From positions 1-60,824 of the IMG/VR virus record IMGVR_UViG_3300045738_001878: 60,824 nt of DNA. One strand, written 5' to 3'. The DNA comes from a virus (Duplodnaviria; Caudoviricetes). The position numbers were made by a program, and so were the translations under genes. Positions 14,401 through 58,358 of this stretch are shown piece by piece; position 1 is the first letter of the stretch; each line of letters starts with the position of its first letter. The notes under the pieces are model-generated. The model was given only the letters and a program-made list of their open reading frames with translations. It did no database searches and was not told where the DNA came from.

Positions 14401-14609
14401 TACTCAGTAATTTACACGAAGACAATTTAGAAATGATTAAACTGTTGAAGCCTGCTACTGGTTCGGTTCTAGCAGGCGAATCAACGGGTGGACAAAAACA
14501 ATCTACTAGGTCTAATACCAAGCCAATAGCCTCTCCAAATTATCACCAATGGAAATTTGGCAAGGCTAATGCGAATGCCAGCAAGCAAGTCATTACGACT
14601 GGTAACTAA
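5412..14609 (+). CDS. Tail tape measure protein (3065 aa)
   Basis: Ala/Gly-rich helical giant ORF with hydrophobic and Trp-containing tandem repeats, directly upstream of baseplate genes. Confidence 0.88.
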   Translation: MANSLYDSMDRLIGSTDNVVDVVRSMLQSDVGNAQDYHNANKESEKRDKDRDTKLDKIEKHLNDLVKLTGDQKDDAKEYANSIIAATKEAGQKTGGGTTKQTNKIDLGSLDLSKIQLPGGGGKGFDSASLTKAVEGLGNAGDEFDKALSPLSRVASSGLDASRSMNKLLSESMSYQKQMMEDIRTLTDAATTPGSIYTKDLAAEAANKSVSAGGGGGGGPTVSAGDIDVDGKELGEQLGVGIEEGVERSTSKLGAVLTGTLLGLAGGGDIFQDLFADAIKGELEFIRGMRAIAFQTQMITGETETLQNEFQKTGKIVAETGQNLTTFQVTYMKNLKRGIKSQKEMVGVTKASLNLATMIGSDVAQTADTFADWHMHMGLTDGQMADVGRGIKDVAMWSGVTGDNLMKAVDASSKFVEQMRSAGTLTAVAAKNIIMIQATAQKLGVGESIQDLLGGLGSSVGLLKDASKETQSIIFLAASKVGRVQDAMYGTVLQTRAGIKDIAEGMEQTFKQATGFEMGEIDLMSAEQKFRANMVLESVTGKGIEEFKRMTDTMGEAGMGYAERMATIDAELLTNITLEEQRALIIKKQNMALSAGLEMSSKLSEAAKGVGTIDEAVAKMRKQAGAGWPDIKEDLIALTKDISPGLAGGIAGEDPNAIASAMAIAAADALKEAGGEDYSQQILAAVQANDLTGVRELQEKMTSAQQKLGVDQATGLDPLSEVAQGVREINESIRGVTGPLIAGIMNILGVAGVIAGYLAIMVVASAVHAGKGALGLVGMGFIQSKMGGGGGGGGGGGGGGATGGAPKGPGKAFGFPKVAKMDFGGMMSSGAQLLKGAVAVAIITAGLVAIAIGIIALSKGLMKITGLSPKEIAVIGATIVGMVVGIGLIALAVEKSAAPLMAMNALKSLAKPMLTGALVLLVIGAGIVALATALIWISSQIMGIAGMDAGTAGKTALNIAVIMMAAGFIAWATLNAAAGLAVLGALAPYATWAVPFMLTGAAAILLIAPAIVALAIAIVWMSKKIMSIGGIDAGEAAKVAGNVAVIMLTAGFIAVATMGAAWGLSLLGAQAGLIAGLAPLALLGALAIMVITPAIVALAVAIVWMSKKIMSIGGINAGEAAKVAGNVAAVMLAAGFIAVATMGAAWGLSLLGAQAGLIAGLAPLALLGALAIMVITPAIVALATAIVWISDAIMGAAGVDAASAAKTMEDVAAVMKAAGFIAIAAGAAFWGLQLLGAQAPIFFAMAPLALLGALAITAISAGIVALAVAIVWISDAIMGAAGVDAASAAKTMEDVAGIMKAAGGIALVAGAAFWGLALLGKQAPIFFAMAPMALLGALAITAISAGIVALATAIVWISDAIMSAAGVDAASAAKTMEDVAGVMKAAGGIALVAGAAFWGLALLGAQAPLLWAMAPLALLGAAAIIAISAPIVALAVAIVWLSQSIMSAAGMDAETAAKVADDVYGLIKAAGKIALMTIAMMPILAGMSAAWLVLWYMIPLMVSGAAAILAIGAPVMLFAVSIVKLGEMLANSVDPSVVDKVVVALEGVGKIVTGIADAMDAIINKIIPLQAEPWFWGQSPLNEIGEAAEPFAKQFIGVARFIQIGIIAPVKKYLNIPEGVATKLGSSLKAVGNIVTGIADAMDAIIKKIIPLQAEPWFWGKSPLQEIGAAAVPFARQFIHVARFIKIGVIEPVKTHLNIPEGVATELGDSLKAIGNIITGIADAMEAIINTMVPLIKEPWFWGKSPLQKVGAAAVPFAAQFVHVANFIKHGVIEPIKTHLGDVGNVESIGATIVAVGEMLSALAPMMDVLIDVIVPLTEGGWFSDSPIENIVDAIPEFSEFFGAIAEFLQDGIMAPIQDNMGDVGAVKGVGETITALASMIGAIPGVMDVLIDEIVPLTEGGWFSDSPIEKIAGIQDEFKEFFQGVAEFLRYGIVSPIQTYFPDPGAVTGAATTIVALGQMVSVIPAMMDEIIYGLVPIIKGGWFSKAPADQLSSEIRDKFKVFFWAVARFLNDGIIAPISDQFPDPGKVSSTANIIVALGKMVSVIPGMMDDIIYGLIPIVEGSGWWFSKAPADKLSAEIRDKFKDFFFAVAEFLRYGIINPVQAFFPDPGEVGSTADTIVALARMVGVIPGMMDAIVWNLLPLVGGGWWGMFGGNPSEKILENLDKFKSFFWAVAEFLRYGIINPIQVFFPNPEEVTAAAASLAGMASVVEMIPPFLDTITTSISSLIDGWWWSSPIENMEDDIGTFSKYFKSIATMLGEGIINPIKAYFPKPDELKEIVQQLAGMMVVVAMLPKFLSMLSEKMTELLEGGWWNRFKEGIKVDMFASYFRGIADTLNWGIIQPIQLLPESSAIQEAAARIVALGELVSIMPGFMSLLSEKMEELWDGNWWATEWKTELFGNYWAGLASVLNDGILEPIKLLPESAAIQEAAAKIEALADVMGNLASMLEKLAIVMDQIQSGKFDDMGGVADKINALLAELAKINVGAGAGAGGGGAGAATVAAGGTYQHDSRSHGEILADLEAGAGPGDVQAMSDASPVSGAFGQSLEAGNEELKKTIQSPGSPVSKAVDKYVGLLTGSVVGMGDKIVYGTEAGKAERATAKQAVEAERLAGTMSASLFEDGVEQFGEDFKGASEKAEGSIVEDMAAAKKSMLGIKEAIEDAAGVTTKEAAKEAEEKALEGVKATESYKDAEKRLFGSQLNPDGSVGPPLPGTDKPTFSEDITSAAKQMEEKGVGPSQKASPKMEEALAGLGDAERLRILGNKKGEGAKLDTTNRAILDADLAQEEERNTMAGFDQLPRGKGYGGKPKPVNPWTERNDYMRGGGPEVWTDLNAKLRQMSEDGATPQELIAYQEKHAAGIRSRRDEVESGQGPHGGPTQESMNTGISPTRTVRSFDQGGEFLTSGAELILVGEGGAERVRIEPANLSSSLLNLPSMLRDASTGNAGGAASTEVNPAPLADVHERVKQKYATEGGANKAQTGDMAKIAAAGDRQCQLLSNLHEDNLEMIKLLKPATGSVLAGESTGGQKQSTRSNTKPIASPNYHQWKFGKANANASKQVITTGN
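8430..9780 (+). repeat. About 252-nt (84-aa) tandem hydrophobic repeats in the tape measure gene
   Basis: ctcctgcaattgtggc recurs near 8434, 8686 and 8938; the PAIVALA.AIVW.S..IM unit is repeated about 5-6 times. Confidence 0.85.
10050..12720 (+). repeat. About 80-83-aa Trp-loop repeats (IIPL...W[F/W]..SP/AP...GII.PI) in the tape measure gene
   Basis: QAEPWFWG x2, KEPWFWG, EGGWFSDSP x2, GGWFSKAP, GWWFSKAP, GGWWGMFG, DGWWWSSP, GGWWN, GNWWA. Confidence 0.85.
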
Positions 14610-25209: not shown

Positions 25210-25500
25210 ATGAAAAAGTCTTTTATTGTAACTCGGTATTACGACCCTGATACAAAAACATCACAGAAAGTAATTTTTGTAGATGATGAATTATTTGATT
25301 GGGGGATAGAAGAAGAAGCCCTGGAGCAAGCTCGAAAGTTCTCCAAGAACGATGAGGGCATTCAAACCGCTATTCACGGTGACATTCAAAAATACTTCCT
25401 CGACAGCCTGTCCGAATTTTTAGGACACACAATTACATTAAAGGAAGTTAATGAAGCCATTGAAAATGGCTTTATAGAATGCAAAAATGATACTAATTGA
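25210..25500 (+). CDS. Hypothetical protein
   Basis: 96-aa ORF, GAGG SD, overlaps next gene. Confidence 0.7.
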   Translation: MKKSFIVTRYYDPDTKTSQKVIFVDDELFDWGIEEEALEQARKFSKNDEGIQTAIHGDIQKYFLDSLSEFLGHTITLKEVNEAIENGFIECKNDTN

Positions 25501-26014
25501 AGAAACCGATAATAGATTCTATTTAAAAAAATCTGGTTTGAAGGACGCTGGAACAGGCGTTTTCGCAAAAGGATCAATCAAAGCAGGTGAATATTTGGAG
25601 GTTATAGGGGTGGCGGTTAAAATCGGATCGCCAGCCGCCAAATGTACCACATGGGCGCAACATTACAAATTTGCCGCCAAAGATAAAAATTTTGATCGAC
25701 ACATCATCCCTCTGGGATATGCGGCAATCATTAACCATACAAGCGACCAAACCCTACAGAATGTAGAGATTAGGTGCTTAAAGAGCATATCTAAGCGCAA
25801 CACTGCTGCTGGCAACATGGTTTATTATTTTATTCGGGATGTTGAAAAAGATGAAGAAATTCTAGGGAACTATGGAGAGGTGGTGCAGAGCAAGATTGAT
25901 TGGGTCGAAGAGAATGTGGGTTTCAATCACGAAGAATGGAAAACCTTTTTGTCTCATGACCTATATAACTTAGGAGTGTTGTCCAAACAAATGAACATCT
26001 ACAAGGAGTCGTAA
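25487..26014 (+). CDS. SET-domain protein-lysine methyltransferase
   Basis: S.L..AG.GVFA...I.AGE; GYAAIINH; RDV...EEI..NYG. Confidence 0.85.
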   Translation: MILIEETDNRFYLKKSGLKDAGTGVFAKGSIKAGEYLEVIGVAVKIGSPAAKCTTWAQHYKFAAKDKNFDRHIIPLGYAAIINHTSDQTLQNVEIRCLKSISKRNTAAGNMVYYFIRDVEKDEEILGNYGEVVQSKIDWVEENVGFNHEEWKTFLSHDLYNLGVLSKQMNIYKES

Positions 26015-27417: not shown

Positions 27418-27957
27418 CTAAAGCAAATCATAAACATACGACCAGCGGTCATCATCTTTGTGTTGATAATTTTCTACCTCACGAAGATACTTGAATAGAC
27501 CATCCCAACTTCCAAAACGCTTGGTATTAAATCCCCAATACCAAAATGGAACATTATATCTGCCTTCTGGACAAACTAATAAAGTAGGGTTTTTATTATC
27601 TACACTATCGATAATCTCGTGATGAGTTCCCGTAGTTGCTATTCCTTTGGGCAAATAAGCTATTAGAAAGTCACTATGACTCACCCATGTCAAGTCTTTC
27701 CTGACAAATTTATGAGCAATTCCCTCTAGAGTTTTATCAACTTCAGGTATGATGGCGTCCAAACCACCCGCAATTCCTTCTTCTCTTGCAGCATTTAGAA
27801 TTTCAGCCCATTGCTGTTTAGGGTCTGAAAACGGGTCTAATAAGTCTACCCCAAATTCCTCGACTAATACCTTTATAGGTATGTCTCTCCAATCATCGTT
27901 GGTGCTATGCTCAATAGGGCCACTCAAGTAACATCTTTTTCCCTGTAGAACAGACAT
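27418..27957 (-). CDS. Nucleoside 2-deoxyribosyltransferase-like protein
   Basis: CYLSGPI...WR; DP; FVRKDL..V..SDFLIAYL...T.GT.HEI. Confidence 0.8.
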   Translation of the reverse strand: MSVLQGKRCYLSGPIEHSTNDDWRDIPIKVLVEEFGVDLLDPFSDPKQQWAEILNAAREEGIAGGLDAIIPEVDKTLEGIAHKFVRKDLTWVSHSDFLIAYLPKGIATTGTHHEIIDSVDNKNPTLLVCPEGRYNVPFWYWGFNTKRFGSWDGLFKYLREVENYQHKDDDRWSYVYDLL

Positions 27958-37328: not shown

Positions 37329-37406
37329 ATGACCAAAATCAAATGATTAATTCTATATATCCTTGAAGACAAAGGCCAAATAGACACGTCCTCAAGGAGA
37401 AACATA

Positions 37407-37988
37407 ATGAGCGTATTTCAAGTAAATCTAAACAACGTAGAGCAAGGGCTTCTAGACAAGCACCCTACAACTGGTGTTCAAAATGCCATATCGTCGCAGC
37501 GAAATGTGTATGTCATGGGTCCGAATCATATCAATCGTCTACTGAGCGACGGCGAACAATTCACAGACTGCAACTATTGGAAGCGATTTGCATATCCACA
37601 AGTTTCACTAGCAGAAGCTATTGTAAATGTCATAACTGATGACGGTAGCGTATACAGCGATGTTGAGTCGGAAAATACGTATCCGAAGGTATACGACATC
37701 ACTGCTACTGCTGGGACCACATATGCAGCCAACCAAGCAGACATTCTTGGTGACACTAGTGGACACGCTGTGTTCGCACAAATTACCAATACTACTGCTT
37801 CTGGTTCTCTGAAGGTAAAACTAAACGGAATAGCAGATGGTATCTTCGACCTAGGATTTGGCGAGACTCAGGTATTTAACTCTGGCGATCTTTCGATTAG
37901 CATGATCGAAATCGACAACAGTACATCGGGCAACCCGACAAGCACTGTTCAAATCATCGTTTCTGTTCGCTCTATATGCAACAGTTAA
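37407..37988 (+). CDS. Beta-rich hypothetical (probable abundant virion) protein, copy A
   Basis: MSVFQVNLNN..QGLLD..DGEQFTDCNYWKRFAYPQVSL; AAGGAG SD; own promoter motif and terminator. Confidence 0.85.
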   Translation: MSVFQVNLNNVEQGLLDKHPTTGVQNAISSQRNVYVMGPNHINRLLSDGEQFTDCNYWKRFAYPQVSLAEAIVNVITDDGSVYSDVESENTYPKVYDITATAGTTYAANQADILGDTSGHAVFAQITNTTASGSLKVKLNGIADGIFDLGFGETQVFNSGDLSISMIEIDNSTSGNPTSTVQIIVSVRSICNS

Positions 37989-38007
37989 GTTGTTTCTGAC
38001 GAAATAA

Positions 38008-38039
38008 AAAAAACCCCGCCCTCACGGGCGGGGTTTTTT
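38008..38039 (+). terminator. Rho-independent terminator
   Basis: AAAAAACCCCGCCC-TCAC-GGGCGGGGTTTTTT. Confidence 0.92.
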
Positions 38040-38105
38040 GTTTCTACAGTTCTATATATTATTGAAGACAAAGGCCAGAGAGATATATCCCTCAAGGAGA
38101 ACATA

Positions 38106-38681
38106 ATGAGCGTATTTCAAGTAAATCTAAACAACACGGGGCAGGGGCTTCTTGACCAAGTTCATCAGACCACATCAGTACAGAGAACTATCTATGCTAT
38201 GGGTCCGGGTGGCGTAAGTCGCAAGCTAACAGACGGAGAACAATTCACAGATTGCAACTATTGGAAGCGATTTGCATATCCACAAGTTTCACTAGAAGAT
38301 GCTATTGTAGATGTGGTAACTGATGATGGCAGCGTATACAGCGATCTTGCTGTGGAAAATACATTTCCTAAAGTATACGATGTTACCGTAGACGCCAGTA
38401 GTACATATACATTGGCGACCAACATAGTAGATATTCTTGGTGACACTGGTGGACACGCTGTGTTCGCACAAATTACCAATACTACTGTCGCCGCTTCCGA
38501 CAAGAACGTAAAAGTTAAATTAAACGGATTGGCAGATAGTATTTTCGATCTAGCCAGTGGTGACACCCAGGTATTCAATGCTGGTGAACTAGCGATCACT
38601 CTAATTGAATTCGCAGATAATGGGTCCGAAGAACAAACCATTCAGATCGTTCTTTCAGTTCGCTCTTTGTGCGCTAGCTAA
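38106..38681 (+). CDS. Beta-rich hypothetical protein, copy B (tandem paralog)
   Basis: Long identical blocks with copy A (TDCNYWKRFAYPQVSL, GHAVFAQITNTT). Confidence 0.85.
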   Translation: MSVFQVNLNNTGQGLLDQVHQTTSVQRTIYAMGPGGVSRKLTDGEQFTDCNYWKRFAYPQVSLEDAIVDVVTDDGSVYSDLAVENTFPKVYDVTVDASSTYTLATNIVDILGDTGGHAVFAQITNTTVAASDKNVKVKLNGLADSIFDLASGDTQVFNAGELAITLIEFADNGSEEQTIQIVLSVRSLCAS

Positions 38682-38709
38682 CCCAAGTTTGTTTATAATG
38701 ACATAAATG

Positions 38710-38735
38710 AACCCCGCCCTCACGGGCGGGGTTTT
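38710..38735 (+). terminator. Rho-independent terminator with the same stem-loop as the 38008 copy; abuts the convergent fadA stop
   Basis: AACCCCGCCC-TCAC-GGGCGGGGTTTT. Confidence 0.9.
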
Positions 38736-38737
38736 AT

Positions 38738-39916
38738 TTATTCGCACTTCTTTAAAAGGGTGGCTAACCCCTGTCCCATTCCTACGCACATTGTAGAAAT
38801 CCCTAAACTTTTTTCTTCTTCATGCATTAAATGAAATAAAGTGGTAGTTATTCTTGCCCCAGAGCATCCTAATGGGTGGCCTAACGCTATCGCTCCTCCC
38901 TTAAGATTAACCTTAGTATCAATTTCATTTATCAAATCTAAACCATCTAAACAAGCTAATACCTGTATTGAAAAAGCTTCATTTAATTCTATCAATTCTA
39001 TATCTTCAAGATTATAATTTTCTCCGCTAATATCAGGCACAGATTTTGATAAAAGCTCTGTGACGGCTGAAATGGGAGCTAAACCCATCACAGATGGGGA
39101 TACTCCTGTTTTAGAAAAACCTTTTATTTCTATTAATCTGTCCTTAGAAAAACCTTTTTCTAAAGCAAGTTCTTTTTCCATAATCAATAAGGCAGCAGCC
39201 CCATCTGAAATTGCTGACGAATTTCCTGCTGTCACTGTTCCTTGGGGGTTGAAAACAGGATTAAGATTGCCTAATTGGTCTATACTTGTATTATTTCTTA
39301 CTGGTTCGTCTACCTCAGCGTTGATATAAGCCCCTGAGACGCTGTGTGCGGGCGTCGGGACGGTTTCGCTGCTCCAATTAGCTTGTGAGGCCAATACGTG
39401 CGATCTAAGGGCAAATTCATCTTGTTCCCTTCTGCTTATTCCGGTGACAACAGACAGATACTCCGCAGTATATCCCATTACTTGAGATGCCCTTGATGAT
39501 GTCAAACAATATTCAGGATTTTCGTCATATTCGCAATCCATAGGGATATGTCCCATATGTTCAATTCCACCACACACATAACAATTACCCTCTCCAATCA
39601 TTATTTGTCGAGCGGCGTCATTTATTGCTTCTAAAGAAGAACCACATAACAAATTAATTGTCTTTGCGGTTGTTTCAACAGGCAGTTCTGCCCCTAAAGA
39701 AGCAAATCTGGCTATATTAAATCCTTGTTCCTTTTGTTGATTTACACAACCAAAAATAACTTCATTAACATCGCTTTTAGATATGTTTTCGTTTCTTTCA
39801 AAAATTGAATTGATTACATGTGTGCTAAGTTTTTCAGCACGTATATTTCTATAAATTCCATTTTTAGATTTGCCCATAGGGGTTCTAACGGCATCTACAA
39901 TTACTGGTATTTTCAT
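38738..39916 (-). CDS. fadA: 3-ketoacyl-CoA thiolase
   Basis: VIVDAVRTPMGKSK; NLLCGSS (catalytic Cys); NEAF; GHPLGCSG; MCVGMGQG. Confidence 0.95.
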   Translation of the reverse strand: MKIPVIVDAVRTPMGKSKNGIYRNIRAEKLSTHVINSIFERNENISKSDVNEVIFGCVNQQKEQGFNIARFASLGAELPVETTAKTINLLCGSSLEAINDAARQIMIGEGNCYVCGGIEHMGHIPMDCEYDENPEYCLTSSRASQVMGYTAEYLSVVTGISRREQDEFALRSHVLASQANWSSETVPTPAHSVSGAYINAEVDEPVRNNTSIDQLGNLNPVFNPQGTVTAGNSSAISDGAAALLIMEKELALEKGFSKDRLIEIKGFSKTGVSPSVMGLAPISAVTELLSKSVPDISGENYNLEDIELIELNEAFSIQVLACLDGLDLINEIDTKVNLKGGAIALGHPLGCSGARITTTLFHLMHEEEKSLGISTMCVGMGQGLATLLKKCE

Positions 39917-41874
39917 TAAACAAGTCCCTCTTTATAAGGTGGATATCCGGTTCCAAATATCATTGCCATGTTTATCTCATAAGGCTCGTCAACTATTTTT
40001 TCGTCTAATATCATCTTCGCTTCTTTTTTCATGACCGACATTAATCTTTCTTCCACATCTACAGGAGCCGGGCGGACCTGCCCAGAGTCAGAAAATTTTC
40101 CTTTTCTTTTTGTACCTTTCCAACTATAAAATCCCGCACCTGTTTTTTGTCCTAGGGTGTTGTTTTCATAAAGTTGTTTGCAAAAACTGTCTTCTGGGCT
40201 TTTGATATAATCGTATTCTTCAACCATGCTATTAGAGGCATGTACCATTACATCAATTCCAACGAGGTCGGACAATTCCGCCGGACCCATTGGCCATCCA
40301 AAATCTTTCATTACTTTGTCTATATGTTCAAAGTCTATCCCCGAAGAGATCATATGATCGAATTCAACTAGGTAAGGCATTAGCACTCTATTCACAACAA
40401 ATCCTGCACAGTCGTTGCATACTAGAGGGGTCTTGCCCATTGCTATCGCCAGAGAACATAATATTCCCACTGTCCCGTCGCTGGTATCTTTCCCTTTTAC
40501 AATTTCTACAAGTGGCATTTTTGAAACAGGGTTAAAGAAATGCATGCCGCCAACCCTAGTTGCATTAAGTCCTTCTTTCAAATCATCTATTTTAAATGTA
40601 GAAGTATTTGTTGCAAAAACAGTTTCTTCCGTTGCGTAAGAAGCGGATTCACGAAGAACTCTTTTCTTTAGATTTATATCTTCGGGGACTGCTTCAATAA
40701 CCACATCGGCATTGCGGACAGCTTCTTCCAAATTGGTAGTTTCTTCAATTAAGTCCATTACTCTGCTGCATTCATTTATTGTGATATACCCCTTGCTAAC
40801 TTTGCTCATTAAGTAATCACGATTAGACTTTGTGGATTTTTCAATTTGACTGTCGTCTGGATCGTAAAGAGAAACTTTGATATTTGCTTTATTGGCGATT
40901 CCAAAAGCAATTCCACCTCCCATTACACCTGCCCCCAACACGGCTACTTTATTAATAGAAGAAGCCGATCTTGCATATGAAGCAGCCTTGGATTTTAGTT
41001 TTCTTTCACCAAAGAATATGTTGATGAGATTTCTAGAAACATCTGTTTTTGATAATTCGACAAAGGCTGTTTGTTCGTAAGTTAAAGCTTCATCTCTTTC
41101 CATTTTTCTACAAGTTTCTATTACTTCTAATGCTTTAATAGGTGCGGGGTAATTGCTCCCCGCCTTTTTAGAAACTGTTACTTTGGCAAATTTAAAAGTC
41201 ATCATCGCTTCAATCATGCCAAGTTTGATTGGGCTGGTTTTTTTATTTCTTCTTTTTTCTATTTCATTTCTTAACCCCTCAATTGTTTCAATAGCCACTT
41301 CTTCAAAGTTTGCATCTTTTTCTGCAATTGCATCAACAAGTCCCATTTTCAAAGCTTCTTTTGCTCTTAAAGTTCTTCCTGAACAAATAAGATCAATTGC
41401 ATTATCTGCACCAATGAGTCTTGGAAGTCTAGTAGTTCCTCCCCACGCCGGGAGTATTCCTAATTTGACTTCAGGGAGAGCAACCTGTGCTTGAGGTTCA
41501 GCCATTCGTCCCGAACATGCTAAGGCTATTTCAAGTCCTCCTCCCATTGCTGTTCCATTTATCCAAGCCAAAGTGGGGATCGGCATGTCTTCAATTTTAT
41601 TGAATACTTCTTGTCCTGACTTCACCACCTCTATTATTGCATCGTCGCTTTCTTGGCTCACAGCGACTAATTCTTTTACATCTGCTCCAGCGATGAATGA
41701 AGTTTTTCTACTTGCAAATACAATCCCTTTGTGATCTGCGTTTATGTTTCCCAATATATCATTGAGTTCGTCCATAGAACTTCGATCAAACGTATTAACG
41801 CTTTTTCCTGGTGAGTTAAAATATACAAATAAGATTCCATCTTTGATCTCAGTTTCAAAATTTTTATAACCCAT
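39916..41874 (-). CDS. fadB: Fatty-acid oxidation multifunctional enzyme (enoyl-CoA hydratase plus 3-hydroxyacyl-CoA dehydrogenase)
   Basis: FIAGAD; GGGLE; PEVKLG; GAGVMGGGIA; EAVPE; TNTS; HFFNP; GFVVNR; PMGP. Confidence 0.93.
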   Translation of the reverse strand: MGYKNFETEIKDGILFVYFNSPGKSVNTFDRSSMDELNDILGNINADHKGIVFASRKTSFIAGADVKELVAVSQESDDAIIEVVKSGQEVFNKIEDMPIPTLAWINGTAMGGGLEIALACSGRMAEPQAQVALPEVKLGILPAWGGTTRLPRLIGADNAIDLICSGRTLRAKEALKMGLVDAIAEKDANFEEVAIETIEGLRNEIEKRRNKKTSPIKLGMIEAMMTFKFAKVTVSKKAGSNYPAPIKALEVIETCRKMERDEALTYEQTAFVELSKTDVSRNLINIFFGERKLKSKAASYARSASSINKVAVLGAGVMGGGIAFGIANKANIKVSLYDPDDSQIEKSTKSNRDYLMSKVSKGYITINECSRVMDLIEETTNLEEAVRNADVVIEAVPEDINLKKRVLRESASYATEETVFATNTSTFKIDDLKEGLNATRVGGMHFFNPVSKMPLVEIVKGKDTSDGTVGILCSLAIAMGKTPLVCNDCAGFVVNRVLMPYLVEFDHMISSGIDFEHIDKVMKDFGWPMGPAELSDLVGIDVMVHASNSMVEEYDYIKSPEDSFCKQLYENNTLGQKTGAGFYSWKGTKRKGKFSDSGQVRPAPVDVEERLMSVMKKEAKMILDEKIVDEPYEINMAMIFGTGYPPYKEGLV

Positions 41875-41883
41875 TTTTTGTCC

Positions 41884-43803
41884 TTATTGTTTGTAGTTCA
41901 TTAATATTGTGCCTAAAGTTGATTTTGGTCCCAAGTTGGAACAAACAAAGTCTTCATCGCTAAGCTTCTCGCCAAGTTTGACTGATTTTCTTATTTGATG
42001 GTCATTAGGATGCTTTCCGAGTATCTCATTTTTTAAATTGTCACAAGCAACATCAGCGATTTGCTCAGTGATTTCATCATAATGTGTTGCTGTGTATCCT
42101 AATGTTGCCAACATGGTAATTAAATTTTGTATCTTATTAGACAAGAGCGACATCCTACATTGTTTATCCGCTAAACGAAGTTGGTATCTTCTCATTAATG
42201 AGCTTATTTCAGATGCAACCTTTTGTAGATTCTTAATTGCAAAGTCGGCATGGTTTTTAAGTTGTGGCGGGAAAGATTGATCATCAAATAATGTGGCAGA
42301 TTTAGGGTATAACTTTTCTTTAAAAAGCCACTTAGCATAAGGCAAAAACACTTTGTAATTTTTAATCACATCAATAGGAGACGGCTTCTTAATGCCAGCT
42401 TCCATCATTGCTTTGCCAATAGGTTCAAAATATTTAACTCCATGCTCTTTCACCAGCGATTTGAAAAATGCCATGTTTAGCATATCGCCCTCGCCCTCAT
42501 AAATCAATGGAGCTAAAAACTCATGAATATTATCTCCTATTAAGTGTCCATGTAAAAATGAACGGCCACCATGTGTTTTCATGCACAGATCAATTGCTGA
42601 TTCTTTTTGTTTCTCTGATCCAAACGTTTTAGCAACAATGCATTCCAACTCGCCTCTGTACCCTTGGTCTATAAGAGAAGAACACCAGTTTACAAGAGAA
42701 TTAGAAGATAAAATATATCCGGCTAATTTGGCGATCCTATTTTGAACTAGTTCTCTTTTAGCGATAGGTTGTCCATAGGTGATTCGGAAATTGGACCAAG
42801 GCAACATAGACCACAACATTACGTTCATACATCCGGCTGCATTTGCGCATAGTGCAATCCGCCCCAGGTTCAATCCGTGATAGGCAATGGTAAGCCCATT
42901 GCCTTTATTCGGTTTGATTAAATTTTCCTTTGGAACTTTGAAATTTTTAAAGACAAGACCATTATTGTTCAATCTAGACAAAGCATAAAGACCATACGTT
43001 TTTAATTGAAAATGGGCGCTTTCTTTTTCAGGCAAGTCTACTATTAGCACTTGTGGTTCATTGTCTATAAGACAAACAAGAGAAATCAATCTTCCACATA
43101 TGGCATTTGTTATAAATAGTTTTTCTCCATTTACGACATAATGATCTCCCTCAAGAGTTGCTGTAGTTTTTAGAGCCGTCATATCAGAACCGGCCCAAGG
43201 TTCTGTGAGAGCAAAAGCCGATAGCTTTTCCCCTGAAGCGAGAAGAGGAAGCCATTTTTCTTTTTGATCTTTGTCCCCAAAAGTTTTAATCGGATCGACT
43301 GCGCCAATGCACCCATGCACAGAAGCTAGTCCAGCCACACTTGGTTCCAACATTGCCATTTTAGATAAAAATGGAGCAAATCTAGAAAAGGAAATAGCTG
43401 GTTTTTCAACTATCCCCTTGATAGATCGTGTTGCCTGAACTGGAGCAATAGGAACTAAAAGGCCAAAATATCCTGCTTTAGATAAATCATTCAATAAATC
43501 TTTGCTTAATTTACCAGTTTCAGAATCATAAAGTGTGTCATTAATTTTATGATCGTTAAGTACCTCGTAACAATCTTTTGTAATTTGTAATTCTTCTTGA
43601 AAAGAGAAATTGAAAAACTCTTTGATGGGAAACTCTCTGTCCCACACTGCACGGTGTACTGGGCTGTGAGAGGTTTTGTACTTTTCCTTAAACAAGTTGT
43701 CTACTTGATCATCCGCTGTATCAACTTTGCCTATGCTTTTAGACTCTTCTTTAGTTTTTCCGCTTAACTCCATTGCGGTTTCAGCAAAAGATTTATTACT
43801 CAT
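41884..43803 (-). CDS. Acyl-CoA dehydrogenase
   Basis: AFALTEPWAGSD; NGEKLFITN; LN.GRI; R.TYG.PI; HGG; IYEG catalytic Glu. Confidence 0.93.
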   Translation of the reverse strand: MSNKSFAETAMELSGKTKEESKSIGKVDTADDQVDNLFKEKYKTSHSPVHRAVWDREFPIKEFFNFSFQEELQITKDCYEVLNDHKINDTLYDSETGKLSKDLLNDLSKAGYFGLLVPIAPVQATRSIKGIVEKPAISFSRFAPFLSKMAMLEPSVAGLASVHGCIGAVDPIKTFGDKDQKEKWLPLLASGEKLSAFALTEPWAGSDMTALKTTATLEGDHYVVNGEKLFITNAICGRLISLVCLIDNEPQVLIVDLPEKESAHFQLKTYGLYALSRLNNNGLVFKNFKVPKENLIKPNKGNGLTIAYHGLNLGRIALCANAAGCMNVMLWSMLPWSNFRITYGQPIAKRELVQNRIAKLAGYILSSNSLVNWCSSLIDQGYRGELECIVAKTFGSEKQKESAIDLCMKTHGGRSFLHGHLIGDNIHEFLAPLIYEGEGDMLNMAFFKSLVKEHGVKYFEPIGKAMMEAGIKKPSPIDVIKNYKVFLPYAKWLFKEKLYPKSATLFDDQSFPPQLKNHADFAIKNLQKVASEISSLMRRYQLRLADKQCRMSLLSNKIQNLITMLATLGYTATHYDEITEQIADVACDNLKNEILGKHPNDHQIRKSVKLGEKLSDEDFVCSNLGPKSTLGTILMNYKQ

Positions 43804-43930
43804 GAATTAAGGCCCTCTTAAAGAAACTAACAAATATAAGATAGTTTTATGTCGTTATCAATTTGATAAATTTTTTGTCAACATGGAACTAAATGGGATA
43901 TTTTCTTTTATTATGATTCTATCTTATAAC

Positions 43931-44902
43931 ATGGCACGCATTATACGCAAACGTGACCCAATAAAAAAGCCTCTTTCTGTAAGAGAATTTCACGAGAAGA
44001 AGAACAAAATTCTAATCTTGCGTGAAACAGGAGGGCTGGGGGATATCTTACTGCATCGGCATATATTCGAAGACTTCAAGCGGGTCATGCCAGATGTAGA
44101 GGTGGTATTCGCTTGTCCAACCAAATACCACGAGGCCGTTGCAGATCATCCTTACGTCAATGAGGTAGTTGATTCCCGAACCGTGAAATATCACGACTAC
44201 ATTGCACATTACAATACCACTAGTGCATGTACTCGACACGAGATGAGACATGTTCCGATGTCGAACAAAAACCGAAGCGACATTTGGGCAAATCACTGTG
44301 GCGTTCTGCTTACTAGACACAACATGCATATCACTCTTGATGAAGAGACTATAAAATTTGGGAAAAAGAAGCTACAGGAGGCTGGACATCGTGGCGATAG
44401 GCCATCTGTGATAATTAACCCCATATCAGCTATGTTGACAAAAGACCTTCAGGATTGGCAAATAGAAGGATTAATTGACGGCTTGCGAGAAAGGGGGATG
44501 TTTGTTATGGCCCTACACTTGTCCCCCATTGATGGCCTGCCATCTAATGTCCCTCAATTATATGGAATTAGAATAAAAGAATGGATGGGGGTATTAAATG
44601 CAGCAGATTATATCATTAGTGTTGATTCTGCTGCCTTTCACTTTGCGGGTGGAATTGGCAAGCCTTTGACGGGCATTTTCACTTTCGCAGACGGTAAGGT
44701 ATACGGTCGTCATTATGATTTCGTTCTAGTACAAAAACATAGAGATGATGGCAATTGGGAATGTGGGCCTTGTTATAACTGGCCAATGTGTCCGAAAGAA
44801 ACCAAGAGTCCAATAAAACCCTGCTGTACAGAAATAACAATTCAAATGATGCTGGATGGCGTAGATAAAATGATAGAGAAGTGGCCGTGGAAAACCAGTT
44901 AA
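43931..44902 (+). CDS. GT9 (ADP-heptose:LPS heptosyltransferase-like) glycosyltransferase
   Basis: GGLGDIL; HPYV.EV; ADYIISVDSAAFHFAG..GKP; C.PC..C..C tail; likely start MARII. Confidence 0.85.
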   Translation: MARIIRKRDPIKKPLSVREFHEKKNKILILRETGGLGDILLHRHIFEDFKRVMPDVEVVFACPTKYHEAVADHPYVNEVVDSRTVKYHDYIAHYNTTSACTRHEMRHVPMSNKNRSDIWANHCGVLLTRHNMHITLDEETIKFGKKKLQEAGHRGDRPSVIINPISAMLTKDLQDWQIEGLIDGLRERGMFVMALHLSPIDGLPSNVPQLYGIRIKEWMGVLNAADYIISVDSAAFHFAGGIGKPLTGIFTFADGKVYGRHYDFVLVQKHRDDGNWECGPCYNWPMCPKETKSPIKPCCTEITIQMMLDGVDKMIEKWPWKTS

Positions 44903-45118
44903 TCACAATGAACCGCATGGATCATATTGGGGCATACCTCTCAGACAGTCTGTCGTCCTTCAGGGACACGTAATTGGTTCACCAGAGGAGAATAGCCAGA
45001 TTATGATTAAACGTCTCTAGAATGGCTCTCAGGGCTTTGCGGGTACAATAACTAATACACTAATGTCTTCATTTTTACCATTAGGATAACTCTATATAAG
45101 AAGAAGGAAAAATTCAAT

Positions 45119-45365: not shown

Positions 45366-46382
45366 ATGGCCATTGGATTTGATGCTGGTACATATAATTT
45401 AGTTTGTTGTCGTAGGGACGGAAAAAAGAAAGGCTTCACTCACAAGCGTGAAGTCAACGCATTCATTGAAATGCCAATAGAAAACCGATTCGTCTTCAAT
45501 ATGATGAAAAATGCAGGTGTGCCTCTGATCGAAAGAAAAGAAGCTGGAGTGGCATATGCACTTGGAGAGGCTGCTGTAAATATTGCCTACACAATGAATA
45601 ATGTAGAACTCAAGCGACCTATGAAAGATGGGTGTTTGAACCCAAGAGAAAAATATGCCCAGCAAGTTATGAGCATCATGATGCATAGTTTGCTGGATGA
45701 TCTCGACCATGAAAAAGAACTTCTATATTACTCTGTACCCGCAAACGCAATCAATCAAGAGACAGACGCCGATTATCACGCCAAGATACTTGAAGCTGTT
45801 TTCAATGCATTTGAAGACGAGAATGGGAAAAAAGTAGAAGCTCATCCAATTAATGAAGCTCTAGCTCTTGTGTATGCAGAACTCGAAAGCAAGTCATACA
45901 CAGGCATAGGAATTTCTTTTGGAGCCGGTATGGTAAATCTTTGCTTCTCTATTTTTGGTGCTCCTGCTTTTGAATTTTCTCTAGTAAACAGTGGTGATTG
46001 GATCGATAAGATGGCGGCAAAAGCTACGGGAGAATCTCCCACCTTCATCAATAAGGAAAAGATGAAGTTAGACCTAACCGTTGATTCTGATTCTCTAGTT
46101 CAAAGAGCAATTAAGTCTCAATATGAAATCATGATTCAGAAAACCATTACTGGCATCAAAAAGGGTGTAGAAAAAGCTGGAAACAAGGCTCGTGGTGACA
46201 ACGCAATCGATATTGTTATCGCTGGTGGTACTAGCTCTCCTCCTGGTTTCGAAAAACTCTTTTCCGATGTAATCAAAGAAGCAAATGTCCCAATTGAAAT
46301 TGGAGAGATTATCCAACCTTCTGATCCACTGTATTCGGTGGCCAGAGGATGTTTAGTAGCAGCGGAAGCTGCCGCTCAGTAA
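45366..46382 (+). CDS. Actin-like ATPase (MreB/MamK/ParM superfamily)
   Basis: Phosphate-1 IGFDAGT; connect-1 NEALA; phosphate-2 GISFGAGMVN; adenosine IAGGTS; connect-2 VARG; GAGGAG SD. Confidence 0.9.
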   Translation: MAIGFDAGTYNLVCCRRDGKKKGFTHKREVNAFIEMPIENRFVFNMMKNAGVPLIERKEAGVAYALGEAAVNIAYTMNNVELKRPMKDGCLNPREKYAQQVMSIMMHSLLDDLDHEKELLYYSVPANAINQETDADYHAKILEAVFNAFEDENGKKVEAHPINEALALVYAELESKSYTGIGISFGAGMVNLCFSIFGAPAFEFSLVNSGDWIDKMAAKATGESPTFINKEKMKLDLTVDSDSLVQRAIKSQYEIMIQKTITGIKKGVEKAGNKARGDNAIDIVIAGGTSSPPGFEKLFSDVIKEANVPIEIGEIIQPSDPLYSVARGCLVAAEAAAQ

Positions 46383-46833: not shown

Positions 46834-48225
46834 ATGGCTAGCGCAGAAATGGACAAATTATTTAATGACATGTTCAAGGATGTTGATAATGAAATCAACC
46901 AATTCAGGGACAAAATAAACGCTGCGCTCAAGAAAAATGCTGACAGCCTGAATCAGGCAGCTATGCAAGCTATACAGCAAACCATGCAGCAAGCTGGAAT
47001 GGCAGGACAGCCCGGTATGCAAACCGCACCAGGGCAACCCAGCAGACCACAATCTTTACCTTGGCTCAAGCACGGTTTACGTGGATTCCTTCGCAAAATA
47101 TGGCATGGCAATCATCCCGACAATCCTAGTTGGCAAGGATATACAGGGGAACACGTATTGACATTAGAGGAAAATAATTTCCTCATGAATCAGCTTAATG
47201 AAGCCGCTGACATCATAATTAGCGAAGTAGTTCCAGCCGATGTTATTGGGGCATCATTGTCAGGGCAAATTGGCGATATTGAAAAAATCACAATAGATTT
47301 TAGAAATAATTTGAAAACCATCATTAGGACTGCTCTTACACAAGCGGATATTAAAGGACGAAGAGGCTCAGCTACAACAACGCCCTCGCCCTCGCCCACA
47401 TCCACACCTGCCGCCGCAGTTAGTGCTGGGGATATAGACTCAGCAGCAGCAGAAGAAGATGATGACGATGTTGGCCAATTCGAACCTGCGACTGATGTTG
47501 TCCCCGGCGAAGGGGGTGGTGATGATGCAGATGTGCCGGTCTCAACTATCAACAAGGATGTTGTTCAGCAGATAGATTCATCGGAAAACCAAGAAATTGA
47601 TGCGAAAATTGATGCAATGGGTGAAGAATTAAGGGAATTAGTAGATCAGAAAACTGGCAAGATCAAAGTGAAGTCTCGTGGCTTGGCCAGGGCGGCACTA
47701 AAAGGTCTAGGTTTAGAAAATAATGATAAAAATGCTAAAAGGGTATTTGAACGATATGGCTATATCAAGCCAGACGGCCAAGAAGAGGATGGGATACCAG
47801 CAAGAACAGGTGGACGAACGAAACATGTTCCCAAAAAACGCAAAAGTGCTGCAACTACAACAACTACTACTGCTACATCGCCAAAGATAACCAAAGATAA
47901 AGATAAAGAAAAAGATAAAGTAAAGAAAAAGAAAACCGTTATTCAAGGTTCATCTGAACTACACTCTGTGGAGGGAGATGAGAAATTTATTTCCAACACA
48001 CTCGACGGCGATCATGACGATAACTACGAGTTAGAAAGTCGTCGTGCATATGAAGACTTTGTTGCTCGAAATATAATTGAAGGTCTACCACCGAAGTATA
48101 AGTTAAACTTCTTTAGGGAGACTTTGAGTAAGGGCGCTAGAGGCTCGTATGTTCTTCGCCACAAAGTAAGAAACATGCCTATTGAAGAACGCACGAAATA
48201 CTTCAAAGAATTATTGAATTCTTAA
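46834..48225 (+). CDS. Low-complexity hypothetical protein
   Basis: About 463 aa with Q-, T/P-, D- and K-rich tracts; GGAG SD; TATATA at 46800. Confidence 0.75.
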   Translation: MASAEMDKLFNDMFKDVDNEINQFRDKINAALKKNADSLNQAAMQAIQQTMQQAGMAGQPGMQTAPGQPSRPQSLPWLKHGLRGFLRKIWHGNHPDNPSWQGYTGEHVLTLEENNFLMNQLNEAADIIISEVVPADVIGASLSGQIGDIEKITIDFRNNLKTIIRTALTQADIKGRRGSATTTPSPSPTSTPAAAVSAGDIDSAAAEEDDDDVGQFEPATDVVPGEGGGDDADVPVSTINKDVVQQIDSSENQEIDAKIDAMGEELRELVDQKTGKIKVKSRGLARAALKGLGLENNDKNAKRVFERYGYIKPDGQEEDGIPARTGGRTKHVPKKRKSAATTTTTTATSPKITKDKDKEKDKVKKKKTVIQGSSELHSVEGDEKFISNTLDGDHDDNYELESRRAYEDFVARNIIEGLPPKYKLNFFRETLSKGARGSYVLRHKVRNMPIEERTKYFKELLNS

Positions 48226-49142
48226 TCACCATGTTCTGTGAATAGATTTCTTACTGTACCACTACCAGATCGCATTGTAATTGAATTGGTAACTGGCCCA
48301 CGCTCTGTAAATCGCACGCCTTTCAATAACTTACCATTTGTAATCCCCGTGCCAGCAAACATCACTTCTCCTGCTGCCAAATCTTCTATCGAAAGAATGC
48401 GGTCATTGGCCGGAGCATAACTTTCTTTATCCACTTCCTGGCACTGTAGAAAACCACCCATGCATTTCATCGCACAAGCCGCTATTACAGCTTCAGGTGC
48501 GCCACCAATACTCCAATACATGTCTACGCCCGAATCTGGCACACAAGCAGCGATACAGGCAGTTACGTCACAATCCGATATAAATTTAATGCGACAACCA
48601 ATCTTTCGCAATTCTTTTACAAGATTCGCAGTACGAGGACGATCTAGCACACAGACAGTGACATGTTGAGGGTCTTTTCCAAGAGCGGCAGCCACCATTC
48701 CAACGTTTGCACTAGCTGGATTTCTAAGGTCAATTTGTGATTTTGATGCTACTACAGGACCAACCGCAATCTTATCCATGTAGAAATATTTTGTTTTGTA
48801 GAGTGCATCCTTCCCAGCAAGCGTGATAACACTCATTGCTTCATATCCTCCCTTTACGGTAGGAGTGGTCCCTTCAATTGGATCAATTGCAATGGAGTAA
48901 CTAGGTGAATCAGTATGACAAAACGCCCCCACTTTCTCGCCCTCGTAAAGGCCAAATGATTCATCTTTTATACCTTCCCCAATGGCTATCTCGGCGGAAA
49001 AGTTTATCTGATCTAGACGTTTGCGCATGGCGTCAGTGGCCGATTTGTCTGCTTCTTCTTTATTGCCACGGCCTACCCATTCGGCTGCGGAAATAGCTCC
49101 CGCTTCTGTTACTCTAACTAAATCAAGATGGTGATTTTTCAT
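48222..49142 (-). CDS. glpX: Fructose-1,6-bisphosphatase class II
   Basis: RVTEA.A; GRG.K..AD; IGEG..D; DPIEGT; YMDK; LDRPR; DCDV; GGAPEAVIAA.A. Confidence 0.93.
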   Translation of the reverse strand: MKNHHLDLVRVTEAGAISAAEWVGRGNKEEADKSATDAMRKRLDQINFSAEIAIGEGIKDESFGLYEGEKVGAFCHTDSPSYSIAIDPIEGTTPTVKGGYEAMSVITLAGKDALYKTKYFYMDKIAVGPVVASKSQIDLRNPASANVGMVAAALGKDPQHVTVCVLDRPRTANLVKELRKIGCRIKFISDCDVTACIAACVPDSGVDMYWSIGGAPEAVIAACAMKCMGGFLQCQEVDKESYAPANDRILSIEDLAAGEVMFAGTGITNGKLLKGVRFTERGPVTNSITMRSGSGTVRNLFTEHGD

Positions 49143-57857: not shown

Positions 57858-58358
57858 ATGCATAAAAGAAAATTCATCAAAAGGGAACATATAAAACAAG
57901 GCCGAGAAGAAATTCGAGAAGGAATAGAATATGTTGTCGGCGAGGAAGAATACTCAGCCTGGAAAAAGTTTGCATTCAAAGGCCGCATGGTAGAGATGGC
58001 AATTGCCTTTATGCTAGGAGCGGCTTTCAAAAACGTGGTGGGATCAATTTCAGAAAATCTCATCATGCCTGTTATGACTTTCATTCTTAATAAAACAGGT
58101 ACAAACTGGCGTGAACTTACTGTGACGCCAATTGAAGGAATCGCATTAGAGATAGGGCAATTTTTAGGAGCTTTTGTAGACTTTATTTTAATCTCGATTA
58201 TACTTTATATCCTATACAGGAAAATTTTAGCACCCATATTAGAAGATGATAAGAAAATCAAATGTATTGAAACGGTTCAATGCCCGAATTGCTGTAAGCA
58301 AATTTACTATAAGTGTAAAAGATGTCCTAACTGTACTTCTTGGCTAAATGATGAATAA
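57858..58358 (+). CDS. mscL: Large-conductance mechanosensitive channel with C-terminal Cys4 ribbon
   Basis: WKKFAFKG.MVEMAIAF.LGAAF..VV.S....IMP; GQFL.A.VDF.LI; CPNC...CPNCTS. Confidence 0.88.
   Translation: MHKRKFIKREHIKQGREEIREGIEYVVGEEEYSAWKKFAFKGRMVEMAIAFMLGAAFKNVVGSISENLIMPVMTFILNKTGTNWRELTVTPIEGIALEIGQFLGAFVDFILISIILYILYRKILAPILEDDKKIKCIETVQCPNCCKQIYYKCKRCPNCTSWLNDE

Follow-up and report, generated by a model that had tools for sequence, protein, structure and literature searches.

An acyl-CoA dehydrogenase–FadB–FadA operon inserted into the conserved backbone of a huge tailed phage: a probable auxiliary metabolic cassette

The window, that is, the whole 60,824-nucleotide stretch of DNA analysed here, comprises an entire linear IMG/VR virus record (IMGVR_UViG_3300045738_001878). 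At positions 38738–43803 it carries three genes of cellular type, encoding an acyl-CoA dehydrogenase (ACAD), a FadB-like protein uniting enoyl-CoA hydratase (ECH) and 3-hydroxyacyl-CoA dehydrogenase (HADH) domains, and a FadA-like 3-ketoacyl-CoA thiolase. Together they form an operon, 5.1 kb of DNA inserted into the conserved backbone of a huge phage. Quite probably they are a true auxiliary metabolic cassette belonging to a tailed marine phage of that size class, with a predicted function in the oxidation of fatty acids. The position expected of auxiliary metabolic genes, cellular-type genes with phage genes on both sides, is found in independent assemblies.

The operon is recognized as an insertion because the genes flanking it occur without it in the uncultured phage LR756511.1 (595,163 bp), and because it is likewise missing from all of 74 related IMG/VR contigs, which were found by a scan with the conserved actin-like protein encoded downstream of the operon (59–82% identity). 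On the left the window has two tandem paralogous phage open reading frames (ORFs), and on the right a conserved phage gene resembling glycosyltransferase family 9 (GT9) (Table 1). A single-copy homologue of the left-flank ORF lies directly before the GT9-like gene in LR756511.1, and further homologues occur in 73 of the 74 related loci; the right-flank gene has a homologue in LR756511.1 (40% identity) and in 60 of the 74. The two flank homologues are 53 nt apart in LR756511.1. Both flanks, pointing the same way, were found in 58 loci; no more than 122 nt separates them in 50 of these and 332–1157 nt in the other eight, compared with 5201 nt in the window. No match to FadB, FadA or ACAD was found across the whole 595-kb LR756511.1 record, and all three genes are missing from the sequence retrieved around the 74 related loci. 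The closest relatives, L200–L202, whose flank genes are 71% and GlpX proteins 73% identical to those of the window, are devoid of the operon and have a terminator hairpin of their own at the site.

An operon lying on the strand opposite to that of its neighbours and absent from all 75 relatives examined could be a bacterial beta-oxidation fragment mis-joined to a phage contig, or host contamination, and some contigs of the sequencing runs X2 and X8 do break away from the window near 43864–43909 and 38250/38736 (departures near 38250, 43875, 43909 and 44084). The probability of such a chimera is nevertheless practically nil, and it is refuted by the contigs that span the joints. Sequence from 36.5–46 kb is present, whole or in part, in 20 of the 24 listed runs, from 15 studies, 13 runs containing at least half of the sampled words; one of the 20 (X1) is a possible source of the window, and X2, X7 and X8 are DNA runs of other studies, compared over 33–50 kb. 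A 4065-bp contig of X2 covers 40865–44929 with 10 differences and a 931-bp contig covers 38509–39439, while contigs of X7 cover 38670–39223 and 43255–43917 with no differences, so both junctions are bridged independently, by two other studies. Clusters of at least 90% identity to all three proteins were found on contigs of 89756, 36412, 28231 and 10531 bp, further 90% relatives lie on contigs of 82,516 and 60,413 bp, and exact or at least 90%-identical relatives of ACAD occur together with the GT9-like gene on a 4065-bp contig and together with GlpX on an 8270-bp contig, as matched by equal contig size. The best 80 GTDB loci contain no ACAD closer than 57%, apart from one on a 4.4-kb contig, which is nearly identical to the gene of another phage, G003, described below. 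The bridged junctions and the synteny of the backbone with a 595-kb phage bear out the view of the earlier note that the operon is truly phage-borne.

Composition also agrees with the phage, whereas the planctomycete loci carrying the nearest cellular ACADs have a median G+C content (GC) of 0.587. The GC of the operon genes is 0.371–0.384 (0.378 for the operon), against 0.407 +/- 0.034 in 40 other ORFs of the window, and the GC at third codon positions is 0.27–0.31 against 0.357 +/- 0.052. The distance in codon usage is 0.082–0.115, compared with 0.095 +/- 0.029 in the other ORFs, and the tetranucleotide correlation between operon and window is 0.926, other 5-kb windows giving 0.64–0.961 and most of them 0.92–0.96. 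The operon had been described as AT-richer by eye; this is weakly true, GC being slightly lower at both levels, but its codon use is typical of the window.

Table 1. Features of the operon, its flanks and other parts of the window.
Feature	Position	Strand	Remarks
ACAD (acyl-CoA dehydrogenase), 639 aa	41884..43803	-	First operon gene; N- and C-terminal extensions; Pfam
FadB-like (enoyl-CoA hydratase + 3-hydroxyacyl-CoA dehydrogenase), 652 aa	39916..41874	-	Pfam
FadA-like 3-ketoacyl-CoA thiolase, 392 aa	38738..39916	-	Pfam Thiolase_N/C
Promoter-like site TTGATA-17-TATATT	43833..43861	-	5' of ACAD, in 79-nt divergent intergenic region
G+C-rich hairpin with T-runs on both sides, putative bidirectional terminator	38709..38734		4 nt from FadA stop
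Cassette extent common to another genomic context	38736..43864	-	Contig matches in run X8
Left flank: two tandem paralogous phage ORFs, unknown function	37407-37988, 38106-38681	+	Unit about 695 nt; copies 73-89% identical
Right flank: conserved phage gene, weak glycosyltransferase-9 likeness	43883..44902	+	Pfam E 5.6e-4, below cut-off
3065-aa ORF	5412-14609	+	Between tail-tube-side and baseplate genes
SET-domain protein	25487-26014	+
Weak nucleoside 2-deoxyribosyltransferase-like protein	27418-27957	-
Actin-like protein	45366-46382	+	Pfam Volactin E 1.9e-70, full profile
Region of many small indels	47392-48055		Within 467-aa ORF
GlpX (class II fructose-1,6-bisphosphatase)	48222-49142	-	4.4 kb from operon
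MscL-type mechanosensitive channel	57858-58358	+

The layout of the operon is that of a compact unit. The tight coupling of its genes, noticed earlier, agrees in every coordinate with the ORF calls: ACAD and FadB are separated by 9 nt, and the FadB stop and FadA start overlap by 1 nt (TAATG). Each gene is preceded by a purine-rich ribosome-binding site, AAGAGGG for ACAD (43813–43819), AAGGA for FadB and AAGAGGGA for FadA, the last at the TAATG overlap. The genes flanking both sides are on the plus strand, as the earlier reading of an operon opposed to its phage neighbours had it, and the lack of integrase or transposase neighbours also holds, no such family having been found in a Pfam scan of 51 of the 52 called ORFs, with four short ORFs left out. 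Upstream of ACAD, the sequence TTGATA-17-TATATT, with 10 of 12 consensus matches, ranks highest among 17 promoter-like sites in 38–44.5 kb. At the other end the hairpin closes both the operon and the converging left-flank ORF nearest to it, and had no counterpart in 100 shuffles; it is repeated at 38008–38039 because the left-flank unit is tandemly duplicated, the duplication (37351–38754) comprising the ORF, its upstream region and the hairpin.

On gene content and gene order, the carrier is a huge phage related to LR756511.1. Since CheckV regards these 60.8 kb as 12% complete, the whole genome is estimated at about 0.5 Mb. Upstream of the operon, Pfam and PHROG searches recognized gp25, baseplate J, Tail_P2_I and Phage_base_V proteins besides the 3065-aa ORF, and downstream lie genes for the actin-like protein, GlpX, a primase and a PD-(D/E)XK nuclease. 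Between the baseplate J protein and its homologue in LR756511.1 the identity is 45.5%, and the two genomes are collinear, 32 of the 52 window ORFs having matches in the same order (26–63% identity) over a 41.5-kb stretch. LR756511.1, whose record says only 'uncultured phage', belongs to an accession series that we take to be that of the 2020 huge-phage survey, and the main text of that survey makes no mention of fatty acids or actin. Related IMG/VR contigs of up to 458,813 bp place the carrier in a group above 200 kb with a collinear backbone. A prophage or host island was ruled out by the synteny of the backbone on both sides of the operon, and a giant virus of eukaryotes by the tail and baseplate genes and by relatives bearing a terminase. 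A megablast of 36–47 kb against GenBank phages gave no match, PHROGs had none for 17 of 19 window proteins, and a search for tRNA genes found none. A search for the Gp23 capsid family was without a match anywhere, controls included.

The assignment of the three enzymes was based on curated Pfam cut-offs, on NCBIfam equivalog cut-offs and on catalytic positions taken from alignments to solved structures; the catalytic roles given to these positions are presumably those usual in the families. ACAD contains Acyl-CoA_dh_N, Acyl-CoA_dh_M and Acyl-CoA_dh_1, all above the cut-offs, and its catalytic glutamate, Glu436 in the motif IYEGEG, aligns with IYEGT of 5lnx and 4u83. In FadB the domains ECH_1 (9–206), 3HCDH_N (309–489) and 3HCDH (491–585), likewise above the cut-offs, lie on one chain, which aligns to residues 11–670 of the 715 of 1wdk_A (E 9e-139); its relevant positions are the hydratase glutamates E115 and E135 and the dehydrogenase His-Glu pair H445 and E457, together with G314, G316 and G319 of the GxGxxG motif. 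FadA scores 223.8 bits for Thiolase_N (cut-off 26.4) and 125.2 for Thiolase_C (cut-off 27), exceeds the TIGR01930 subfamily cut-off (370 against 240.55) and aligns to 3goa_A (E 5e-111), with the nucleophile Cys91, His347 and the second cysteine, Cys377, in register. All these positions are invariant in the clade alignments (20 sequences for ACAD, 23 for FadB and 16 for FadA), down to relatives of 46–58% identity, which upholds the earlier statement that the catalytic residues are intact.

From this gene content we infer lipid catabolism during infection, as well as its substrate, the timing of expression and the benefit to the phage. The cassette would have a promoter of its own, reach as far as the FadA stop (38736–43864) and borrow the hairpin of the neighbouring gene as terminator, ACAD, FadB and FadA being transcribed during infection as one translationally coupled unit. 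The reactions are the textbook ones of the three families: ACAD would make enoyl-CoA and pass electrons to the electron-transfer flavoprotein of the host, FadB would hydrate and oxidise the enoyl-CoA, giving NADH, and FadA would cleave off acetyl-CoA, with the activation of fatty acids to acyl-CoA by a host acyl-CoA synthetase and the re-oxidation of the flavoprotein left to the host. ATP, reducing power and acetyl-CoA drawn from membrane, storage or imported lipid could meet part of the cost of copying so large a genome in deep water that is poor in carbon, and the nearby GlpX could route the products into gluconeogenesis. Some deep-water phages, then, probably boost the burning of lipid in infected cells.

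Several observations weigh against this account. In the RNA run X20 six contigs of 151–171 nt are 100% identical to the window: the two copies of the duplicated flank ORF account for four of them, the actin-like gene for one and ACAD for one. The last gives the one match within the operon, of 138 nt (42685–42822), and the library may contain DNA carry-over; most of the operon is without cover in this run, to which no weight is given. The proposal that the phage burns host lipid stays a proposal, this single match being the sole evidence of expression. The 17 promoter-like sites do not exceed the number in shuffled sequences (mean 18.1), and position alone singles out the one upstream of ACAD. 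No acyl-CoA synthetase, electron-transfer flavoprotein or lipase was found in the 60.8 kb, about 88% of the genome lying outside it. The C-terminus of FadB is about 45–65 aa shorter than that of cellular FadB (~715 aa), positions from about 672 to 717 of the NF008727 profile being unmatched, and the protein is below the equivalog cut-offs (642 against 870 for the best, NF008727, and 583 against 933.55 for TIGR02437), as is FadA (477.4 against 519 for NF006510 and 439 against 591 for TIGR02445). ACAD reaches no named NCBIfam equivalog, with scores for the FadE models of 57.7 against 1300 (NF038187) and 137 against 600 (NF058590), and therefore the name FadE is unsuitable. By these scores the enzymes are divergent, FadA and FadB being nearest to the FadA/FadB equivalogs. 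The claim that the trio performs all four steps of beta-oxidation is partly sustained: ACAD matches no FadE equivalog, so that its substrate, and with it the working of all four steps on fatty acids, is presumed.

The same uncertainty of substrate leaves room for an active cassette with another role, such as the removal of fatty acids or acyl-CoA at envelope remodelling, the use of special substrates (branched, hydroxy or derived from polyhydroxyalkanoate), or a supply of acetyl-CoA for gluconeogenesis or nucleotide sugars in concert with GlpX. The ACAD subfamily is of unknown specificity, GlpX, which is above its equivalog cut-off, is only 4.4 kb away, in phage G003 a class-I aldolase gene lies between HADH and ACAD in an island of other metabolic genes, and several phages have ACAD alone or ACAD with ECH and HADH and no thiolase. 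We consider another role rather unlikely, as the full ACAD–FadB–FadA order and its translational coupling are what a complete spiral needs, and the cellular relatives of ACAD adjoin fadB and fadA. Far less probable still is a recently acquired passenger, neutral or decaying and of no benefit to the phage. It would fit the finding that among the actin-encoding huge phages examined only the lineage of the window carries the cassette, at a site where eight of the 58 relatives hold other insertions; it is at odds with the three frames being open from end to end in many proteins of the 90%-identity clusters (21, 22 and 19 members), with the invariance of catalytic residues in distant relatives and with the wide occurrence of the sequence among runs and studies. 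A cassette for lipid catabolism is the reading preferred here.

The origin of the three genes was approached with quick maximum-likelihood trees, branch support being given by the Shimodaira–Hasegawa-like approximate likelihood-ratio test (SH-aLRT). For ACAD the nearest metagenome relatives are 57–94% identical, and the nearest cellular ones belong to Planctomycetota (53–57%). Among the matches listed, the 80 best GTDB loci comprise 78 with a Planctomycetota label, one (L136) labelled 'bacterium', and L109; the planctomycete likeness ascribed earlier to the N-terminus of the dehydrogenase is thereby corroborated. L109, a 4398-bp contig (GC 0.40) assigned to a Dehalococcoidia metagenome-assembled genome (MAG), encodes an ACAD of 61% identity that is almost the same as the one in phage G003; probably this contig is phage DNA that was binned with a bacterium. 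In the ACAD tree a clade of 28 rows (the window, 19 metagenome proteins, seven IMG/VR sequences and L109; support 98) lies among planctomycete enzymes, next to Fuerstiella (support 86), while two metagenome proteins and a 51%-identical IMG/VR sequence remain outside it. Of the 80 GTDB ACAD loci, 30 have a FadA-like and 27 a FadB-like ORF at most 6 kb upstream of ACAD, and on this gene neighbourhood the ACAD subfamily can be considered linked to beta-oxidation in cells.

The other two enzymes point elsewhere. The nearest metagenome relatives of FadB, of ~650 aa, are 44–92% identical to it and cellular FadB of ~715 aa at most 42%; for FadA the corresponding values are 57–93% and about 50%, its cellular relatives being labelled SAR324, Lambdaproteobacteria, Bdellovibrionia and Acidobacteriota. 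The FadB of the window, 12 metagenome proteins and all seven rows of split phage ECH and HADH form a clade of 20 rows (support 100) which, together with a group at 44–47% identity, is sister to SAR324/gammaproteobacterial FadB (98), planctomycete FadB lying outside (95). The FadA tree has an analogous pattern, with a well-supported clade of metagenome proteins and IMG/VR phage genes. An approximately unbiased (AU) test rejected the joining of phage-type with planctomycete FadB (p 0.0145, for a group defined with the tree already in view). Applied to FadA, the test did not reject a clade shared with the planctomycete proteins (p 0.289), and a non-planctomycete origin of FadA is therefore not claimed. 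The earlier suggestion of a mosaic operon gains from the FadB test, with its group named post hoc, and is left undecided by that of FadA; a mosaic origin, in a phage or in a cell not yet sampled, is likely but not proven. Among the matches listed, a scan of metagenome contigs with FadB gave only cellular-type FadB at 31–41% identity. Relatives about 56–68% identical occur on contigs of 66,171, 149,445 and 151,647 bp, where the trio appears to be together, judging by equal contig sizes.

Related genes are present in other phages as well. A scan of viral contigs with the single FadB sequence found no relative, and viral relatives were found by alignment-based scans. ACAD occurs at 51–68% identity on ten IMG/VR contigs. 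Among their carriers, G003 is a phage of 161,265 bp, 100% complete, with a coding density of 95% and genes for a terminase, a tail fibre with an endosialidase chaperone, ribonucleotide reductase and a DnaE-type polymerase; its ACAD gene and its ECH and HADH genes, which are not fused, belong to an island of metabolic genes, and a search of this phage for a thiolase found none. Several other phages have ACAD alone, or with ECH and HADH, in the absence of a thiolase. G003 and its relatives, of ~150–160 kb, share the enzyme clades of the window (ACAD 59–64%, HADH 48–49% and ECH 40–41% identity), but differ in an unrelated backbone, with one other window ORF in common, and in a FadB split into genes several kb apart. 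The baseplate protein of the window found no match in five ACAD-bearing IMG/VR records; those phages are unrelated to that of the window. The G003 island (L195–L196, 128–156 kb) additionally encodes UDP-glucose dehydrogenase, a class-III aminotransferase, DDAH-like and GlmS-like proteins, aldehyde dehydrogenase, class-I aldolase, an IMPDH/GMP-reductase-like protein, a 2OG-Fe dioxygenase and ThyX. Homologues of the 2-deoxyribosyltransferase-like protein of the window are located directly beside ACAD in L019 and in G003.

In a group of low-GC viral contigs (L003, L008–L014, L016 and L018; GC 0.31–0.37) a thiolase-like gene (432–437 aa) directly precedes one for a FadB/FadJ-like protein of ~660 aa, 34–36% identical to the FadB of the window. 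One member, G006, of 96,760 bp and 54% complete, has a Terminase_6N gene, and fatty-acid oxidation genes may be present in this third phage lineage. Among GenBank phages, the matches to FadB and ACAD by tblastn were for the most part contigs of bacteria catalogued under phages, and the one true jumbo-phage match was a distant ACAD of Microcystis phage MaAM05 (30% identity over 38% of the query). The misfiled records, which would give false 'phage FadB' matches, include Acinetobacter phage MD-2021a, Salmonella whole-genome shotgun sequences and 'S.Kent 1-2-1' fragments, all evidently bacterial with chromosomal fad genes.

Run X8 provides a second context for the operon. Its contigs match the window between 38736 and 43864 only and then continue into 249 and 255 unlike letters, and its depth is 27.7–76.6 over the operon compared with 4.3–19.8 in the flank bins, except for 58 in bin 47742–48308. 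We read this as the same operon, at a nucleotide identity of at least 90%, in another genomic environment. Its ends would then coincide with the promoter and the stop codon, which is how a mobile cassette should behave. It is possible, and is put forward here tentatively, that ACAD–FadB–FadA is a virus-assembled mobile cassette extending from promoter to stop, in which a planctomycete-type ACAD and proteobacterial-type FadBA were joined in the virosphere, diversified into fused and split forms of FadB, and moved between unrelated marine phages of ~150–160 kb and actin-encoding ones of ~0.5 Mb.

Auxiliary metabolic genes of phages usually provide single steps of a pathway. In the open-access literature searched no phage genome with a full ACAD–FadB–FadA set is described, a listing in supplementary tables being possible, and this agrees with the earlier impression that such an operon is not a standard phage module. 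Compared with the bacterial FadBA complex (Pseudomonas fragi, 1wdk; Salmonella FadA, 3goa), the domain order of FadB, the thiolase fold, the catalytic positions and the succession of fadB and fadA are alike; in contrast, the phage FadB is at most 42% and FadA about 50% identical to cellular proteins, both below equivalog cut-offs, FadB is shorter, a dehydrogenase gene heads the operon and the carrier is a phage. Gene clusters of Planctomycetota (MAGs and isolates of Pirellulales and Planctomycetales) share the same long ACAD subfamily, 53–57% identical and linked to fadB and fadA, but have the order fadB-fadA-x-ACAD, whereas in the phage ACAD comes first; their FadB (31–36%) and FadA (43–46%) are less similar to those of the phage than the SAR324/gammaproteobacterial types are, and their GC is 0.59 versus 0.38.

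Viral beta-oxidation genes as such have been reported. Among eukaryotic giant viruses, Prymnesium kappa virus RF01 is an example with such genes, including one for acyl-CoA dehydrogenase, and a 2022 review states that neither a hydratase nor a thiolase was known from giant viruses (PMC9270025); the operon of the window, by contrast, has both, in a tailed phage. Hurwitz et al. (2013) listed fadB and fadL among viral gene families in Pacific Ocean viromes and interpreted them as an energy supply for infection; as far as the accessible text goes, these are abundances of reads and gene families, with no operon placed on a phage genome (PMC4053976). In the accessible portion of a 2023 digester study, acyl-CoA synthetase was the only such gene on viral contigs, and in that of a 2024 ocean catalogue it is fatty-acid biosynthesis that is completed by auxiliary metabolic genes, at the community level. 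What is new here is the whole catabolic spiral with phage-specific enzyme clades, present as a discrete insertion in a huge phage; the auxiliary metabolic gene is the known kind to which it belongs.

A complete self-promoted spiral would show that deep-water phages can bring along a whole energy pathway, and it would extend viral beta-oxidation past the partial sets of giant viruses. Should the cassette indeed be mobile in the manner proposed, no virus of any sort would have been described before its carriers as having every core beta-oxidation enzyme, and with GlpX a huge phage could turn host lipid into energy and sugar phosphates. The phage-specific clades of the three enzymes are widespread in metagenomes from the sea and from hydrothermal vents. 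Such genes may therefore be mis-assigned to bacteria by annotation pipelines and in models of carbon flow in the dark ocean; one already sits in the Dehalococcoidia MAG. The contrast of presence in the window and absence from 75 relatives also offers a clean natural experiment on the role of the cassette.

Several other genes of the window deserve mention. GlpX, above its NCBIfam equivalog cut-off, is absent from the collinear stretch of LR756511.1 and was found in 14 of the 74 relatives; from this distribution it can be regarded as a second metabolic insertion near the operon. The actin-like protein, 63% identical to its counterpart in LR756511.1, is spread over the 74 IMG/VR contigs (loci L199–L273) at GC values from 0.27 to 0.59 and looks like a hallmark gene of a large huge-phage clade; the volactin literature found by the search, as far as seen, concerns Haloferax and no phages. 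The 3065-aa ORF, without a Pfam or PHROG match, is probably a very long tape measure. The window also encodes the MscL-type channel and the SET-domain protein. Finally, the region at 47392–48055 showed many small indels in all three DNA runs, contigs break there, and the depth in these runs peaked at 56–176 in bin 47742–48308; on this pattern the region can be considered repeated or hypervariable.

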